From Chloroflexota bacterium (GTDB taxonomy: Bacteria > Chloroflexota > Dehalococcoidia > DSTF01 > JACRBR01): a stretch of DNA of 64,000 bases. The stretch's first letter is position 1. Every line of letters begins with the position of its first letter. The position numbers were made by a program, and so were the translations under genes. Location of the stretch: NCBI GenBank assembly GCA_028872875.1, contig JAGWOC010000005.1, positions 4,114 through 68,113 of the forward strand, given 5' to 3'. The notes beneath the pieces are model-generated. The model was not told where the DNA came from. It ran no database searches and worked only from the letters and a program-made list of their open reading frames with translations. Shown in pieces: positions 10,610-44,776 of the stretch.

Positions 10610-11195
10610 GCGCGCGCGCGGCGCCGTCCTGTCTTGATGCAGTCGCGCTCGCTGATCCCGGAACGAGCGCGGGCTGAGCGTGCCCCTGATGCTCCCCTGC
10701 TCCTACTCGCGGTCGCGCCCCGCCACCGCCCCCCGCAGCGCGAAGCACACCGCGTCCGCGTGCTCCGTGCTGCCACCGCAGCATTCGGCGGCTATTGTAC
10801 CCCGGCGTCCACCCGGCCGCGTAGCGTGTACCGTGAGGAATTTCACAAGATCGCCGAGGGATCTCCGGGACCAAAGCTACGCCAGAAGCGCTTCGCGGTG
10901 GCGGCGGCGGCACGAGGCGCACGTCGCCGCGTCCTTCGGGCTGGAGCCGTGGAAGACGCGCCGTGACGAGCCGGCGTGGACGTGCTGCCGACGCTGACGG
11001 TCGTCGATGGCACGTGCAGTCACGGGCGGGACGGCGTCGAACGCGTCATCGAGCAGGCGCGGGCGTACGCGCGGCGCTGGCTGTAGGGGCGCGACGGTCC
11101 CGGGCGCGCGCCACATCGCGGCTCGCGCGCCCCGGCGGGCGGGCATACAATCGTCGCGATCCAGCAGTTGCGAGTAAGGACGAGGAGGAGAGCCC

Positions 11196-19148: not shown

Positions 19149-20468
19149 ATGCAGTCGACGAACGCCAGGCGCGGCGTGATCACGGTGGGGCAGGGCCCGC
19201 GGCGGCACCGCAGGGCACGCCGCATTGCCATCGCCGCGGCCGTGGTGTTCCTGATGCTGGCAGCGGCGCTGCACTGGCGCAACGCGCTGGCGGTGCGGGG
19301 CTCCGACCTGAGCCGGAGCGTGATCGGCGCGGACAACACGGTGCGCATCGAAGCGATCTACTTCCGGCTGAACGACCGGTTCAAGCGGCTGAAGTACAGC
19401 ATCTTCGGCGGCGGCACGGGCAATCCGATCAGCCCTGCGGCGCAACGCCACACGGCGGCGTCCGCCGCCGCATCCACGAGCGCGGCGCCGCGGCACGCGT
19501 CCGCAGCGGCTGCGGCCGGTGCGGCTGGTGCGGCGGCGGCACCGACGGCAGCGCTGCCCGACGCGGCGCCCGCGCCCATCGCCCCCATCTATCCGCACAC
19601 CCTCTCGCAGGGGGAGGGGACGTGGACGACGATCCAGCTCGCGGGTGGGCTGCGCACGCCGTACACGACGCAGCACCCCATCTACACGACGTTCATCCGG
19701 CCTGACCCGCAGCGGCCCTACGCGACGGTGACGCTGGCGGAGTTCAGCGCGGCGAGCATCTCGCTGCATCCGGTGGCGGGCACGAGCGAGCCCGGCGTGT
19801 CGACGGGCATCTCGGGGACGGGGGCGATCCCGTCGAGCGTGCTCGACAGCGGCGCGCTGCTGGCGGCGTTCAACGGCGGCTTCCGCTGGCAGGACGGCCA
19901 CTACGGGATGATCGTCGACGGCAAGACGGTCGCGCCGATGGCGGACGGTCTGGCGACGCTGGCGACGTATCGCGACGGGTCGTTCCGCATCGGCACGTGG
20001 GGCAAGGATCTGGGCCCGTCTCCGGACCTGGTCTCGGCGCGCCAGAACGCGATCCTGCTCATCGATCACGGCGCGATCTCCTCGAAGATTGACGCGGGCG
20101 GCCACACGTGGGGCTTCATCTGGTACACGAGCCGGAACTTCTTCACGACGCGCTCCGCCATCGGCGTGACGGCAGACGGGCGGTTCGTGTTCGCCGGCGG
20201 CTACGAGACGAACGCGCGGACGCTGGCGACGGCGCTGCGCCAGGCGGGCGTGCAGACGGCGATGCAGCTCGATGTGAACAAGCCGTACACGCAGATGGCG
20301 CTGTACGAGGCGCCGCATTCCTACATTCAGGGCTTCAACCTGACGGACTGGATGCACCAGTCCCCCGACGGCTTCTTCGCCGGCCGTGCGCGCGACTTCG
20401 TGTACATGACCATCCGGGGCCAAACGCAGGCGGCGCCGACGGCTTCGCCCCGCGGCACGGCACCGTGA
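19149..20468 (+). CDS. Secreted/anchored protein with a C-terminal phosphodiester-glycosidase (DUF2233/NAGPA-like) domain.
   Basis: 439 aa. N-terminal signal anchor. C-terminal 'FNGGFRWQDGHYGMIVDGK...AIGVTADGRFVFAGG...MQLDVNKPYTQMAL' matches the DUF2233 pattern. RBS GGTGAGGAGG. Paralog of 27152-28405. Confidence 0.8.
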   Translation: MQSTNARRGVITVGQGPRRHRRARRIAIAAAVVFLMLAAALHWRNALAVRGSDLSRSVIGADNTVRIEAIYFRLNDRFKRLKYSIFGGGTGNPISPAAQRHTAASAAASTSAAPRHASAAAAAGAAGAAAAPTAALPDAAPAPIAPIYPHTLSQGEGTWTTIQLAGGLRTPYTTQHPIYTTFIRPDPQRPYATVTLAEFSAASISLHPVAGTSEPGVSTGISGTGAIPSSVLDSGALLAAFNGGFRWQDGHYGMIVDGKTVAPMADGLATLATYRDGSFRIGTWGKDLGPSPDLVSARQNAILLIDHGAISSKIDAGGHTWGFIWYTSRNFFTTRSAIGVTADGRFVFAGGYETNARTLATALRQAGVQTAMQLDVNKPYTQMALYEAPHSYIQGFNLTDWMHQSPDGFFAGRARDFVYMTIRGQTQAAPTASPRGTAP

Positions 20469-25134: not shown

Positions 25135-25560
25135 ATGGCGAAGAAGATCCGGGCGATCATCACCTTGCAGATCGAGGCCGGGAAGGCGAACCCGGCGCCG
25201 CCCGTCGGGCCGGCGCTCGGCCAGCACGGCATCAACATCATGGGCTTCTGCAAGGAGTACAACGAAAAGACCGCGGGCCAGGCGGGGACGATCGTCCCGG
25301 CCGAGATCACGGTGTTCGAGGACCGTTCGTTCAGCTTCATTCTGAAGACGCCGCCGGCGTCCGACCTGCTGAAGAAGGCCGCGGGCATCGACAAGGGGAG
25401 CCCGGCGCAGAAGCGGCAGAAGGTGGCGACGCTCTCGCGCGGGGAGATCCGGCGCATCGCCGAGTTGAAGATGAAGGACCTGAACGCCAACGACATCGAC
25501 GCGGCGATGCTGATGGTGGAGGGCACGGCGCGCTCGATGGGCATCGAGGTCGCGCCGTGA
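25135..25560 (+). CDS. rplK: 50S ribosomal protein L11.
   Basis: 141 aa '[36 protein letters not shown]'. RBS GGAAGGA. Confidence 0.97.
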
Positions 25561-25823
25561 TGGGAAGCAGGCGGCGAGAGGCCCGAAGCGAGAGGCTGCG
25601 CGACGGCGCATCGTTGTAGGGGCGCTGCTTGCCGCGCCCGCCGTTGTGTGATGCCGGGCGGGGCAAGCGACACCCGGCCGGGGTGCGGATCTGGCGCTCC
25701 GAAGGCGAACCACGGTCCGCCGCGAGGCGCGGCGATAGCCGGTGACGGAGGCCGAACCCGCGTAGGGGGAGGCCGGCTCGGACCCCATCGAGGGTGTACG
25801 TCGCCGCGGAGGAGGACGAGCGG

Positions 25824-26534
25824 ATGAAGCACGGGAAGCAGTACACCGAGAAGGCAAAGCTCATCGACCCGGAGCGGCTCTACACGCCGCAGGAGGCGAT
25901 CAAGCTGGCGAAGGAGGCGTCCTTCGCGAAGTTCGACGAGACGGTCGAGCTGCACCTGCGTACGGGGCTCGACCCGCGGCACGCCGACCAGCAGATCCGC
26001 GGCACGTCGCTGTTGCCCCACGGGCTCGGCAAGACCGTGCGCGTGCTCGTCTTCGCCGAGGGCGAGGGCGCGCGCCTGGCGCAGGAGGCGGGCGCCGATG
26101 AGGTCGGCGGCGACGAGCTGATCAAGAAGGTCGAGGGCGGCCACACGGCCTTCGACGTCGCGCTCGCCCAGCGCGACCTGATGGGCAAGGTCGGGCGCCT
26201 CGGCCGCGTGCTCGGCCCGAAGGGGCTGATGCCAAACCCCCGCTCCGGCACGGTCGTCGATGCCGCCGACATGGCGAAAGCCGTGCGCGACGCGCGGCAG
26301 GGGCGCGTCGAGTTCCGGCTGGACCGCACGGCGATCGTCCACTGCCCGATCGGCAAGGTAAGCTTCGACGCCCAGGCGCTCGAAGAGAACATGGCGACGC
26401 TGGTCTCCGAGATCGTCAAGGCGAAGCCGTCGGGCCAGAAGGGGGTCTACATCCGCTCGATCACGCTGACGACGACGATGGGGCCGGGCATCCGACTGGA
26501 CCCGACGCCGACGCTGGCGATGAAGGCCGGGTAG
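25824..26534 (+). CDS. rplA: 50S ribosomal protein L1.
   Basis: 236 aa from [22 protein letters not shown]. About 260-nt leader after rplK contains one copy of the GGGCGC/GCGCCC hairpin (25616-25645). Confidence 0.95.
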
Positions 26535-26574: not shown

Positions 26575-27036
26575 ATGGCGCAGGTGTTTCCGCCGCTCGA
26601 GATCTCGCAGCACTGGCAGAGCGTCAACGACTCGCTGCTGCGCATCGTCGAGCTGATCCCGGAGGAGAGGCTCAACTGGACGCCGCAGGCGGACCTGTGG
26701 AATTCACGCGGGGTCCTGATCCACATCTCCGATGCCCGGGACGGATGGCTCGCGAACACGGTGGTGGACGGCGATCCCTACCCCAATATCTGGACGACCG
26801 CGCGCAGCCGCGACGACCTTCGCCGCGAGCTCATGCGCAGCTTCGCGCGCCTGCAACGCTTCCTCTCGAATCAGGCGCAGCTCGATGCCTCGTACCGTGA
26901 CGACTGGAATGGCGAGACTGTCACACTCAGCGGCCACTGGATCGCGTTCCACCTGCTCGTGCACGACATCCACCATCGTGCCGAGCTGCTGCAGCGGATC
27001 GCGTTGATGGGCATCGAGCACGACATCGACGTTTGA
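26575..27036 (+). CDS. DinB/YfiT-like (DinB_2 superfamily) four-helix-bundle metalloprotein.
   Basis: 153 aa with His ligands 'HISD...HLLVHDIHHRAEL'. RBS GAGGGAGG. Inserted between rplA and rplJ. Confidence 0.75.
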   Translation: MAQVFPPLEISQHWQSVNDSLLRIVELIPEERLNWTPQADLWNSRGVLIHISDARDGWLANTVVDGDPYPNIWTTARSRDDLRRELMRSFARLQRFLSNQAQLDASYRDDWNGETVTLSGHWIAFHLLVHDIHHRAELLQRIALMGIEHDIDV

Positions 27037-27151
27037 GTGTCGCGCTGGTGTCTGGCTGGCGTCATGCAACCTGCCGCGGGATCGATCATGATGGTGGCGT
27101 CGGATGGAGGCGGGTGACGGCTGGCCGCGCAGGGACGGTGGCGGTGGGCCC

Positions 27152-28405
27152 ATGACAACGGGAATGCACGCGGGCCAGCGCTCACGCTGGGGCGCGCTGC
27201 GGCCGGGGCGGCGGGCGCGGCGGGTCATCCTCGTGCTCGGCGCGCTGGTCCTCGCGCTGGCGCTGGCCGCGCGCTGGAAGGACACCCTCGCCGTCCACGG
27301 CTCCGACCTCAGCCGGCGCCTGATCGGTGCGCACAACACCGTGCGCATCGAGGCGATCTACTTCAAGGCGGAGGACGCGATGGCCCGCCTGAAGTACCGG
27401 CTCTTCGGCGGCGGCGGGGGCAGTCCCGTCAGCGGGCCGGTCCTCCAGCGCGAGCAGCCCGCCGCGCAGGCCGGATCGCCGTCGGCTGCCGCCGCGCCGT
27501 CCGGCGGCGTCCAGGTGGAGCCGCTGCCGCGGCCGGCAGCGCCGGACGCGCCGCCGGCGACCGTGCCGGTGCTGTACGCGCATACAGCATCGAAGGGAGA
27601 GGGCGTCTGGGCGCCGCTCCGGCTGACGGGCCCGCTGTTGAGCGTCTACACCGAGAAGCACCCGATCTTCACGACCTTCGTGCGGCCCGACGCCGCGCGT
27701 CCGTATGCCACTGTGACGCTGGCCGCGTTCGATGCCGGGAGCATCAGCCTGCATCCCGTTGCGGGCACGCAGGACCCCGGCGGCCCGCTCGGCGTCCGCG
27801 GCCCCGGCGACATCCCCGCGAGCGTCCTGCGAGGCGGCGCGCTGATCGCCGCCTTCAACGGCGGCTTCCGCTGGGACGACGGTCACTACGGCATGCTCGT
27901 CGACGGTATGGAGATCACGCCGATGCGTGATGGCCTCGCGACGCTCGCCTCCTACCGCGACGGGTCGTTTCGGTTCGGCATCTGGGGGAGCGACATCGTC
28001 CCGGCGCCGGACCTCGTCTCCGCCCGGCAGAACGGCATCTTCCTGATCGACCACGGCGCGGTCTCGCCGAAGATCGACGCGGGCGGCGAGACCTGGGGCT
28101 GGGTCTTCTACAAGAGCCGCCAGTTCTACACGGCGCGCACCGCCATAGGACTGACGGCGGACGGCCGCTTCGTCTTCGCGGCGGGACACGACGTGGACGC
28201 GCGTACGCTGGCGCTGGCGATGCAGCGGGCCGGCGTGGTGACGGCGATGCAGCTCGACATCAACAGCCCCTACAGCCAGATGGCGCTGTACGAGGACCAG
28301 AGCGGCACACTGCGGGGCTTCAACCTGGCGGACTGGATGGCGGCGGCGCCGTCGGGCTTCTTCGCGGGGCGGGTGCGCGACTTCGTGTACATGACGATCC
28401 GCTGA
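27152..28405 (+). CDS. Secreted/anchored phosphodiester-glycosidase (DUF2233) protein; paralog of 19149-20468.
   Basis: About 417 aa from MTTGM (the track ORF begins at 27104). Collinear similarity to the first paralog: 'AVHGSDLSRRLIGAHNTVRIEAIYF', 'FNGGFRWDDGHYGMLVDG', 'MQLDINSPYSQMAL'. Confidence 0.8.
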   Translation: MTTGMHAGQRSRWGALRPGRRARRVILVLGALVLALALAARWKDTLAVHGSDLSRRLIGAHNTVRIEAIYFKAEDAMARLKYRLFGGGGGSPVSGPVLQREQPAAQAGSPSAAAAPSGGVQVEPLPRPAAPDAPPATVPVLYAHTASKGEGVWAPLRLTGPLLSVYTEKHPIFTTFVRPDAARPYATVTLAAFDAGSISLHPVAGTQDPGGPLGVRGPGDIPASVLRGGALIAAFNGGFRWDDGHYGMLVDGMEITPMRDGLATLASYRDGSFRFGIWGSDIVPAPDLVSARQNGIFLIDHGAVSPKIDAGGETWGWVFYKSRQFYTARTAIGLTADGRFVFAAGHDVDARTLALAMQRAGVVTAMQLDINSPYSQMALYEDQSGTLRGFNLADWMAAAPSGFFAGRVRDFVYMTIR

Positions 28406-28459: not shown

Positions 28460-28665
28460 TTGAGACAGCAGGCGTCCGCCCGGACATAATCCAGCCTGCC
28501 GAGGCGCAATACGCCAGACCACGGCCCGTCCGGGCCGCGTCGCGTGTGCCCCTGTCGCAGGCAGGGGTTGTTTGTTGCCCCGGCGGGACATCGGGTGCGT
28601 GACTGGCCGGCGGACGGTACGCGCGGGCTGAAGGCCCGCGCTCAGGGACGCGGGGCCCTACGGAG
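28460..28665 (+). promoter_or_regulatory. rplJ leader (about 260 nt) with a candidate promoter.
   Basis: TTGAGA at 28460-28465 and CATAAT at 28485-28490. GC-rich structured leader before rplJ, consistent with an autoregulatory L10 leader. Confidence 0.35.
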
Positions 28666-29202: not shown

Positions 29203-29242
29203 CACCCCGGTGCGCGGGGGCGCTGCGCGCCGCACCAGAATG

Positions 29243-29390
29243 TAGGGGCGCCGCTTGCCGCGCCCGCAGAGGATAGGGGCGCCGCTTGCCGCGCCCGCAG
29301 AGGGTAGGGGCGCCGCTTGCCGCGCCCGCAGAGGGTAGGGGCGCCGCTTGCCGCGCCCGCAGAGGATTGGGGCGCCGCTTGCCGCGCCCA
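29243..29390. repeat. Tandem repeat: about 4.8 copies of a 31-bp unit, each forming a GGGCGC-N8-GCGCCC hairpin.
   Basis: Unit TAGGGGCGCCGCTTGCCGCGCCCGCAGAGG[A/G] with period exactly 31. TAGGGG starts at 29243, 29274, 29305, 29336, and 29367 (the last as TTGGGG). No intervening unique spacers. Confidence 0.9.
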
Positions 29391-29436
29391 ACGTACGTGA
29401 GTCAGGCCGCACGGGCCCAAGGAGGAGAAGGACGAC

Positions 29437-35121: not shown

Positions 35122-35303
35122 CCTGTCGCCGGGAACTACCGCCCGCTACGCTGGATGGGATGACTGACGAGCGACGCGATCACGGTTGGACGGTGCAAGA
35201 TAGGAGCGGGCCCGTCCCGGCCGATCGGCGCGCAACCCGGCGCGGGCTGACGGGCCGCGCTCCCAGTGGGCGCGCACCTTGCCGCGCCGCGGCATAGCTG
35301 TCG

Positions 35304-44389: not shown

Positions 44390-44776
44390 GTGCCTTACAC
44401 CGACAGAAATCTGACGTGCGTGGACTGCGGCGCGGAGTTCGTGTTCTCCGCCGAGGATCAGGAATTCCACGCGAGCCGGGGCTTCACAAACGAGCCGAAG
44501 CGTTGCCCCGACTGCCGGCGCGCCCGCAAGAGCGCGCGCGGCGACAGCGGCGGGGGCGGCGGCTACGGCGGCGGGGGTGGTGGTTACGGCGGCGGGGGCG
44601 GCGGCTATGGTGGCGGTGGCGGCGGCTACTCGTCCGCGCCGCGGCAGATGTATCCGGCGGTCTGCGCTTCGTGCGGGCGCGAGACCGAGGTGCCGTTCCA
44701 GCCGCGAGGCGACCGCCCTGTCTACTGCCGCGACTGCTTCCGCTCGCAGTCACCGAGCGGCGGCGGCCGCCGGTAG
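44390..44776 (+). CDS. Double zinc-ribbon protein with a (GGGGGGY)x4 Gly/Tyr-rich linker (zf-trcl-like 'probable zinc-ribbon').
   Basis: 128 aa. 'CVDCGAEFVFSAEDQEFHASRGFTNEPKRCPDCR' ...GY repeats... 'CASCGRETEVPFQPRGDRPVYCRDC'. Confidence 0.7.
   Translation: MPYTDRNLTCVDCGAEFVFSAEDQEFHASRGFTNEPKRCPDCRRARKSARGDSGGGGGYGGGGGGYGGGGGGYGGGGGGYSSAPRQMYPAVCASCGRETEVPFQPRGDRPVYCRDCFRSQSPSGGGRR

Follow-up and report, generated by a model that had tools for sequence, protein, structure and literature searches.

Why does the spacer between rplJ and rplL, the genes for ribosomal proteins L10 and L7/L12, hold a strictly periodic series of GC-rich hairpins in a 64,000-nt stretch of a Chloroflexota genome (contig JAGWOC010000005.1, hereafter the window), and do these hairpins serve the operon? 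The two proteins are needed at about 1:4, and an earlier note on this DNA took the hairpins for a REP-like family that had expanded specifically inside ribosomal-protein operon spacers and might raise rplL output relative to rplJ. Judged by its sequence, the array consists of tandem copies of a repetitive extragenic palindrome (REP) with a GTAG head, which belongs to a family scattered over many phyla with little regard for ribosomal genes. We consider it quite probable that this REP tandem is of selfish or neutral origin and affects the mRNA in a passive way.

The array is by far the strongest in the window (29243-29389, period 31, 4.7 copies, 97% matches, score 273, consensus TAGGGGCGCCGCTTGCCGCGCCCGCAGAGGA; Tandem Repeats Finder) and is made up of five head-to-tail GC hairpins of 23-24 nt with a 31-bp period. 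Its 21-nt core GGGGCGCCGCTTGCCGCGCCC has five exact matches, starting at 29245, 29276, 29307, 29338, and 29369; a further match, in the rplK-rplA spacer (25619-25639), differs by a single C-to-T change. These six core matches compare with 0.08 expected, and none of 100 shuffles gave six. The five-copy, 31-bp array reported in the earlier note is thus real, and so is its additional hairpin in the rplK-rplA spacer, which carries a GTAG head; however, the earlier inventory overlooked a degenerate older REP copy, here called unit 0, between the rplJ stop codon and unit 1 (Table 1). Unit 0 differs from the REP 24-mer at six positions in a Hamming-distance scan and forms a 10-bp hairpin (-19.5 kcal/mol) that begins 6 nt past the rplJ stop codon. 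The intact units differ in their heads: the copy at 25616 and units 1, 3, and 4 have GTAG, unit 2 has ATAG, and unit 5 has ATTG. The linkers are near-identical 8-nt sequences, GCAGAGG(A/G), with the variable base running A, G, G, A, and the right flank of unit 5 aligns to single-copy relatives. The GTAG heads lie on the sense strand, within the rplJ-rplL transcript, and the minus-strand matches inside the array (7 mismatches) are only the palindrome read backwards.

A single unit folds, as previously described, into a 6-bp G/C stem with an 8-nt loop (-13 kcal/mol), and its loop may hold an extra G-C pair across a C.C mismatch. Neither the single unit (z -0.04) nor the whole spacer (z +0.52) is more stable than shuffles of the same composition, so thermodynamics alone is no evidence in such GC-rich DNA. 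We found no promoter-like or terminator-like site within 29203-29436, and Rfam covariance models gave no match in the rplJ-rplL or rplK-rplA spacer, either at the gathering score or at E up to 1. A Rho-independent terminator or attenuator was rejected for want of a U tract, the only terminator-like site of the region being located 5' of rplJ at 28548-28568. A CRISPR array, which requires spacers of about 26-72 nt, was likewise rejected, in agreement with the earlier note, since the 31-bp period leaves only near-identical 8-nt linkers (GCAGAGGA/G).

The same Hamming-distance scan against the 24-mer found true family members of the window in the two rpl spacers only; TAGGGGCGC at 11084 and 20620 and a 5-mismatch match at 35266 were inspected and not accepted. 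The rplK-rplA copy is identical in two relatives whose RplJ is 93% identical to that of the window (L002 and L003). It is accompanied by a degenerate inverted partner (7 mismatches to the 24-mer), with which it forms a joint long hairpin of -45.4 kcal/mol, and the pair resembles a REPIN-like doublet, that is, two inverted REPs. The rplK-rplA spacer itself (25561-25817) is unusually long at 257 nt and 92% conserved with relatives; it includes a conserved GC-rich stretch at about 25690-25800 that has no Rfam match and could be an rplA leader or L1 operator.

To place the element in a wider context, we scanned 185,579 species-representative genomes with the pattern TAGGGGCGCNGCTTGCNGCGCCC. No fewer than 120 genome stretches contain the exact element, and by their record titles they represent at least 14 phyla. 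The phyla among the matches listed include Acidobacteriota, Armatimonadota, Chloroflexota (several classes), Desulfobacterota, Myxococcota, Pseudomonadota, Bacillota, Planctomycetota, Verrucomicrobiota, Hydrogenedentota, Zixibacteria, Methylomirabilota, and Deinococcota, and all 120 genome matches listed (L013-L132) are metagenome-assembled genomes (MAGs). The 24-nt REP GTAGGGGCGCYGCTTGCYGCGCCC is also present in 82 copies on 50 IMG/VR viral contigs (L190-L239), while in the plasmid collection the sole match was an exact one of 23 nt in Bradyrhizobium barranii. When the sequence string was sought in the full text of the literature, only primers that match by chance came up. Across genomes, flanks are unrelated between copies, and both orientations are found.

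The element spans 24 nt and is composed of a GTAG head and an imperfect palindrome (GTAG-GGGCGCYGCTTGCYGCGCCC). The base before the pattern, which the pattern itself does not specify, is G in 225 of 226 exact matches elsewhere (genomes and viral contigs), so that the element starts with GTAG. The two free positions of the pattern are opposed in the stem and usually form a T.T, T.C, or C.T pair, i.e., a conserved pyrimidine mismatch; now and then a compensated pair (G..C, C..G, or A..T) takes its place. Of the 208 clusters, 76% consist of one copy and 19% are inverted "+-" doublets in which the GTAG heads form the outer ends, whereas head-to-tail arrays are rare (L059 and L089). By the published definition, a REP is an imperfect palindrome that has a mismatch in its stem and GTAG in front of it (PMC8266576; PMC3733652). 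Both the anatomy of our element and its distribution over singles, inverted dimers, and occasional tandem clusters match this definition, hence its identification as a REP; the earlier description as REP-like holds on the GTAG head, the imperfect palindrome, the inverted doublets elsewhere, and the association with RayT genes described below.

Several features of these dispersed copies were recorded in passing. The array of L059 (2260-2606, a Chloroflexi MAG) has seven units with a period of 54, a multiple of three, and lies within long open frames on a contig of 74% GC; that of L089 (17-253, a Chthonomonas MAG) has five units with a period of about 53. A check for spanning open reading frames (ORFs) in this GC-rich DNA showed that most such "ORFs" are spurious or merely abut the REP, leaving a few seemingly real in-frame insertions. 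For instance, an inverted REP doublet at L086:6283-6377 is in frame in a 2167-aa ORF resembling a nonribosomal peptide synthetase, just 5' of the adenylation-domain motif LAYLIYTSGSTGRPK. Tandem reiterations of the 3' half (TTGCYGCGCCC plus an 8-10 nt linker, period 19-21) adjoin full REPs at L244:2574-2650, at L246:1174-1240 and about 470-526, and in L017, L021, L057, L060, L091, and L098; a 3'-half reiteration is likewise present in the rplJ-rplL spacer of relatives with 84% identical RplJ. These reiterations suggest recurrent slippage or cleavage-rejoining at hairpins.

The REP family could be linked to a putative transposase of the RayT type. On a Capsulimonadaceae chromosome (L126), a 172-aa ORF with HIH and YIAENP motifs has REPs on both sides: a REP doublet precedes it, and it ends in the TAG of another REP. 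This protein was first found as a weak phmmer match and was then supported by the NCBIfam model NF047646, "REP-associated tyrosine transposase" (E 6e-17, 61.9 bits). Its family counts at least 7936 homologues, many of which are named "REP element-mobilizing transposase RayT" (JGI) or carry PF01797. The same 24-mer also flanks three homologues that are 57-74% identical (P0137, P0122, and P0145, in L244, L246, and L245): the gene in L244 has REP doublets on both sides, that in L246 is preceded by REPs and has another at its stop codon, and beside that in L245 a neighboring REP doubles as the stop codon of the upstream gene. A RayT gene flanked by its own REP, the arrangement known as a "REPtron," is therefore present in four other genomes. 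At L126:5330-5335, L246:1150-1153, and L245:1962-1965, the gene next to the REP takes its stop codon from the TAG of the GTAG head; in two of these cases it is the RayT gene, and in the third a xanthine-dehydrogenase-like gene. No RayT gene was found beside the REPs on the viral contigs, and an E. coli RayT sequence, when used as a seed, gave a single match, in L027, 4.8 kb from a REP.

Some RayT-like genes contain one or two of their own REPs in frame (L050:2131-2628, L245:2276-2299, L246:925-948, and L240/L241:2291-2420), encoding, e.g., the peptide GAASRAPT in the variable loop between the HUH and Tyr motifs, and these in-frame copies account for the wide length range of the family (156-285 aa). 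In four Chloroflexota MAGs (L240-L243), a 285-aa RayT-like gene, P0182 (2001-2858 in L240), is located between hsdS and hsdR, in a type I restriction-modification operon, and this arrangement is kept in all four assemblies.

Comparison with known systems supports the identification and delimits it. The GTAG REP/RayT "REPtrons" (Nunvar 2010, PMC2817692; Di Nocera 2013, PMC3733652; Corneloup 2021, PMC8266576) resemble our element in anatomy, with GTAG placed directly before an imperfect GC palindrome of 20-50 nt that has a stem mismatch, and in arrangement, with copies that are scattered in either orientation, paired as inverted doublets, or now and then clustered in tandem together with flanking DNA. 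They also have in common TAG heads used as a neighbor's stop codon, in-frame copies within ORFs, and RayT genes flanked by the repeat. GTAG REPs have been described from Proteobacteria, Cyanobacteria, Chloroflexi, and the PVC group, and certain families recur in organisms that are evolutionarily distant; they form head-to-head, tail-to-tail, and head-to-tail (HH, TT, and HT) dimers, provide stop codons through their TAG heads, occur inside ORFs, stand in arrays beside operons in Thauera, and are clustered in Thermomicrobium roseum (PMC3733652). The rplJ-rplL array fits this description by Di Nocera et al. On the other hand, classical REP families are species- or genus-specific and count hundreds of copies per genome, whereas this 24-mer is identical in at least 14 phyla and on viral contigs, and the array studied here is purely head-to-tail with a very tight 31-bp period, in a window with two occupied loci per 64 kb. 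The bacterial interspersed mosaic elements (BIMEs) of E. coli and the REPINs of Pseudomonas (Bertels and Rainey 2011, PMC3116915) are composites of REPs in which tandem reiteration is possible, as here; however, they consist of two inverted REPs. Since all five units and unit 0 share the plus strand, the rplJ-rplL array lacks an inverted partner and is neither a BIME nor a REPIN, whereas the rplK-rplA copy has a degenerate partner. The T. roseum GTAG-23 and Thauera GTAG-1 repeats (PMC3733652), to which we liken the array by description only, are also GTAG REPs, mostly clustered at few loci, T. roseum being a member of the Chloroflexi, and some of them lie beside operons whose expression they may modulate; these clusters are large blocks, in contrast to five units inside a ribosomal-protein operon. 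Three features go beyond the published picture, namely the identity of the 24-mer across phyla and viral contigs, the in-frame REPs in RayT genes, and the half-REP reiterations; all three are family-level curiosities and not properties of the rplJ-rplL array. The cross-phylum identity letter by letter, which is unusual for REPs, suggests either horizontal spread or an extreme constraint imposed by RayT.

The proposed specificity for ribosomal-protein operons did not hold. Only one of the 120 stretches listed (L083) has an rplL homologue within 8 kb of the element, and none has rplJ, rplK, or rplA; specificity for rpl operons fails on this count. In addition, L002, one of the 93% relatives, has its third copy on the opposite strand, between two divergent genes unrelated to the ribosome, and further copies are found within coding sequences as well as on viral contigs. 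For the family as a whole, the element thus occurs at many unrelated sites with no enrichment near rpl genes, an outcome that the earlier note had itself named beforehand as speaking against an expansion specific to these spacers.

The history of the spacer was followed by gathering orthologous rplJ-rplL loci via RplJ homologues and comparing their spacers. These homologues are annotated as 50S ribosomal protein L10 (PF00466) in Dehalococcoidia/Chloroflexota MAGs, and they place the window among uncultured high-GC "Dehalococcoidia bacterium" members of the Chloroflexota; exact-protein look-ups of its RplL and RplJ gave no record. The locus with 99% identical RplJ (L001, an independent Logan short-read assembly) is identical to the window through the array-specific linker GCAGAG after unit 1, where its contig ends inside the array. 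Seven loci with 93% identical RplJ have a 107-nt spacer with one intact GTAGGGGCGCTGCTTGCCGCGCCC in the same place and an upstream degenerate copy (GGGGCGCTGC----CGCGCCC); unit 0 of the window is homologous to the GAGGGGCGCTGC----CGCGCCC of these relatives. The 84% clade has an 89-nt spacer with one intact copy and a downstream half-copy. Most lineages at 65-79% have spacers of 51-70 nt with none of these elements and a small GC hairpin only. The number of intact units is therefore one in the 93% and 84% clades and five in the window lineage, with the element absent from most lineages at 65-79%.

Because close relatives are single-copy and distant ones lack the element, it represents an insertion into a normally short spacer, and the array a recent, lineage-specific amplification; the five units, by this comparison, appear to have arisen by recent local amplification of one ancestral copy. 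In sequence, the linker GCAGAGG(A/G) is similar to the left flank of that ancestral copy, GCAGAATG, a flank that follows the ...GCGCCC of the degenerate copy; the similarity agrees with an unequal exchange, or with slippage, involving unit 0 and the intact unit. Other hairpins have reached the same spacer: L134 (RplJ 80%, 111-nt spacer) has a different GTAG-tagged hairpin, and L144 and L151 (RplJ 68-69%, spacers of 90 and 70 nt) have another GTAG/GTAC-tagged palindrome (GGGACAGGTCTTTAGACCTGTCC). Given these different GTAG/GTAC-tagged palindromes (GTAGCGCGCCGCCAGCCGGCGC; GTAGGGACAGGTCTTTAGACCTGTCC) in L134 (1520-1630), L144, and L151, the rplJ-rplL spacer was colonized by REP-like hairpins at least three times in the class. 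It looks like a permissive or preferred landing place and not like the home of a dedicated element.

These observations can be combined into the following scenario. REPs are non-autonomous short repeats that are recognized and moved as single-stranded DNA hairpins by the RayT (TnpA-REP) tyrosine transposase. An ancestor of this lineage of Dehalococcoidia-class Chloroflexota would have gained one REP in the rplJ-rplL spacer, and in the window lineage this REP, together with 8 nt of its left flank, would have been amplified to five units, presumably through unequal recombination, or through slippage during replication, between the intact REP and the older degenerate unit 0. The mRNA would then contain a row of five to six G/C hairpins, none of them followed by a U tract. 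If they act like the REPs of E. coli, the hairpins may halt 3'-5' exonucleases and so shield the rplJ segment upstream, and Rho-dependent attenuation is a further effect that they could have; both roles have been described for REPs (PMC8266576; PMC3733652). As a structured gap of about 230 nt separates the two cistrons, translation of rplL would be uncoupled from that of rplJ and must initiate independently, from its own Shine-Dalgarno sequence.

The malE-malF REP of E. coli is likewise a hairpin between co-transcribed cistrons with a potential for differential expression, and the work of Newbury and Higgins reportedly showed that it protects the upstream cistron from 3'-5' decay. There, the stabilized upstream cistron is the more highly expressed one, whereas here the downstream rplL is needed in excess; the classical effect of upstream protection would favor rplJ and not rplL. 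The higher output of rplL relative to rplJ proposed in the earlier note thus looks doubtful in its direction. REPs within about 15 nt of a stop codon are said to reduce the output of the upstream gene in E. coli (Liang, Rudd, and Deutscher, 2015), and one may speculate that the hairpin 6 nt past the rplJ stop codon lowers L10 synthesis by stalling terminating ribosomes, a direction that would fit the 1:4 requirement. A regulatory benefit of the array is possible, though not indicated.

Several points weigh against a selfish or neutral origin. The 64-kb window contains no RayT gene; the L126 protein scores below the equivalog cutoff of 80 and has no Pfam match. The head-to-tail arrangement is the rare one in this REP family, and head-to-tail arrays are rare in REPs generally (PMC3733652). 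Two loci per 64 kb is a low density for a classical REP family, both occupied loci are rpl spacers (albeit two sites only), and the two facts together are suggestive of room for site-specific retention. The effect on the mRNA is drawn from the biology of E. coli REPs. Finally, the 24-mer is letter-perfect at the rplJ-rplL spacer in clades whose flanks can no longer be aligned, whereas a purely neutral relic would hardly be expected to survive unchanged.

The last point also serves as an argument for an exapted regulator, i.e., a REP domesticated as an mRNA processing or stability element whose copy number tunes the L10 to L7/L12 ratio, either because the rplL segment is stabilized after cleavage or because the near-stop hairpin lowers rplJ translation. 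We regard this explanation as unlikely. The intact REP is indeed kept in the 99%, 93%, and 84% clades; however, the 24-mer is equally invariant in unrelated contexts across phyla, so its conservation in this spacer is not site-specific evidence, and the constraint may come from RayT recognition instead. The presence of other GTAG/GTAC hairpins in the spacers of L134, L144, and L151, like the occupation of two rpl spacers in the window, would suit a regulator, but most related lineages do with 51-70 nt spacers that lack the REP, and five units are found in one lineage only. The strong hairpin right after the rplJ stop codon also speaks for such a role, whereas the known effect of REPs, the protection of the upstream and not the downstream cistron, speaks against it. 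Each linker contains a Shine-Dalgarno-like GAGG, but no start codon follows at a usable distance. We give little credence to the related proposal that the REP was kept intact since its hairpin serves the operon, through mRNA end protection or translation uncoupling, with the amplification from one to five units acting as a fast and reversible tuning of L10:L7/L12.

It is improbable that the REP and at least one duplication are real while the count of five stems from mis-assembly. The count rests on one assembly, and L001, the only independent assembly of the same lineage, breaks in the array after unit 1, which indicates that assemblers struggle there. Nevertheless, L001 does reach the array-specific linker, the units differ among themselves as genuine diverged units are expected to and those of a looped graph path are not (linkers A, G, G, A; last head TT and not TA), and this REP forms arrays of 5-7 units in L059 and L089 as well. 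The remaining explanation, in which the hairpin mimics the rRNA site of L10/L12 or L1/L11 and mediates autogenous control in both spacers, would account for sense-strand copies in two ribosomal-protein spacers but is close to refuted, given that at least 170 stretches with no relation to ribosomal genes contain the identical sequence (on both strands, in ORFs, and on viral contigs), that it flanks transposase genes, that a separate weak L10-leader-like structure already lies 5' of rplJ, and that most related lineages lack the element.

The surroundings of the REP tandem are as follows (Table 1). According to the ORF calls, the gene order in the window is tuf, rpmG, secE, nusG, rplK, rplA, two unrelated genes, rplJ, and rplL. 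Upstream of rplJ, we found a promoter-like site (28462-28490), a terminator-like hairpin (28548-28568) followed by a T run (to 28577), and a match to the L10_leader model RF00557 that is sub-threshold (25 bits, E 0.47, with a gathering score of 44); the matching region is probably a divergent L10 leader. This leader-like region and the terminator-like hairpin show that rplJ-rplL forms its own transcription unit. Most related lineages have a GC hairpin a few nucleotides 5' of the rplL Shine-Dalgarno sequence, and the array leaves both this native hairpin and the Shine-Dalgarno sequence AAGGAGGAG (29405-29427) intact on its 3' side. The distance of about 2.1 kb between rplKA and rplJL is occupied by a DinB-family gene and a NAGPA-domain gene (26575-28405). 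The former (26575-27036) is missing from the 93% relative L002, and the latter has a paralogous stretch, 72% identical, at 19265-20416. Downstream of rplL lies a gene for a zinc-ribbon/LysM protein, and no rpoB/rpoC. The second-strongest tandem array in the window (44538-44629, GCG-rich, period 21, 4.4 copies, score 128) is probably a glycine/alanine-rich coding repeat.

Table 1. Coordinates of the genes, REP units, and other features at the rplK-rplA and rplJ-rplL loci of the window.
Feature	Position	Strand	Remarks
rplK	25135-25560		ORF
Single intact REP GTAGGGGCGCTGCTTGCCGCGCCC, rplK-rplA spacer	25616-25639	+	
Degenerate inverted partner of the rplK-rplA REP	25656-25679	-	Match CGCTTGCCCCGCCC
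rplA	about 25818-26534		ORF
Weak L10-leader-like region 5' of rplJ	28463-28582	+	Rfam RF00557
rplJ (ribosomal protein L10), 176 aa	28672-29202	+	ORF; TAA 29200-29202
rplJ-rplL spacer	29203-29436		234 nt
Unit 0, degenerate older REP copy between rplJ stop and unit 1	29208-29237	+	
REP unit 1	29242-29265	+	Head GTAG, then linker GCAGAGGA
REP unit 2	29273-29296	+	Head ATAG, then linker GCAGAGGG
REP unit 3	29304-29327	+	Head GTAG, then linker GCAGAGGG
REP unit 4	29335-29358	+	Head GTAG, then linker GCAGAGGA
REP unit 5	29366-29389	+	Head ATTG, then ancestral right flank AACGTACG...
Native small hairpin GGCC-GCACG-GGCC	29405-29417	+	Centroid fold
rplL Shine-Dalgarno sequence AAGGAGGAG	29419-29427	+	
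rplL (ribosomal protein L7/L12), 127 aa	29437-29820	+	ORF; PF16320/PF00542 at orthologous loci

For the locus itself the result is of little consequence: a striking periodic structure in a core ribosomal operon is most probably an amplified selfish repeat, and annotators should not read a dedicated regulator into it. For the family it may matter more. REPIN-RayT systems have been viewed as lineage-specific and vertically inherited (bioRxiv 10.1101/2021.07.10.451892), and one 24-nt REP with a large RayT family, common to at least 14 phyla and to viral contigs, sits uneasily with that view. Moreover, the rplJ-rplL spacers of this Chloroflexota class, with zero, one, or five units, constitute a natural series for the effects of REPs on expression.

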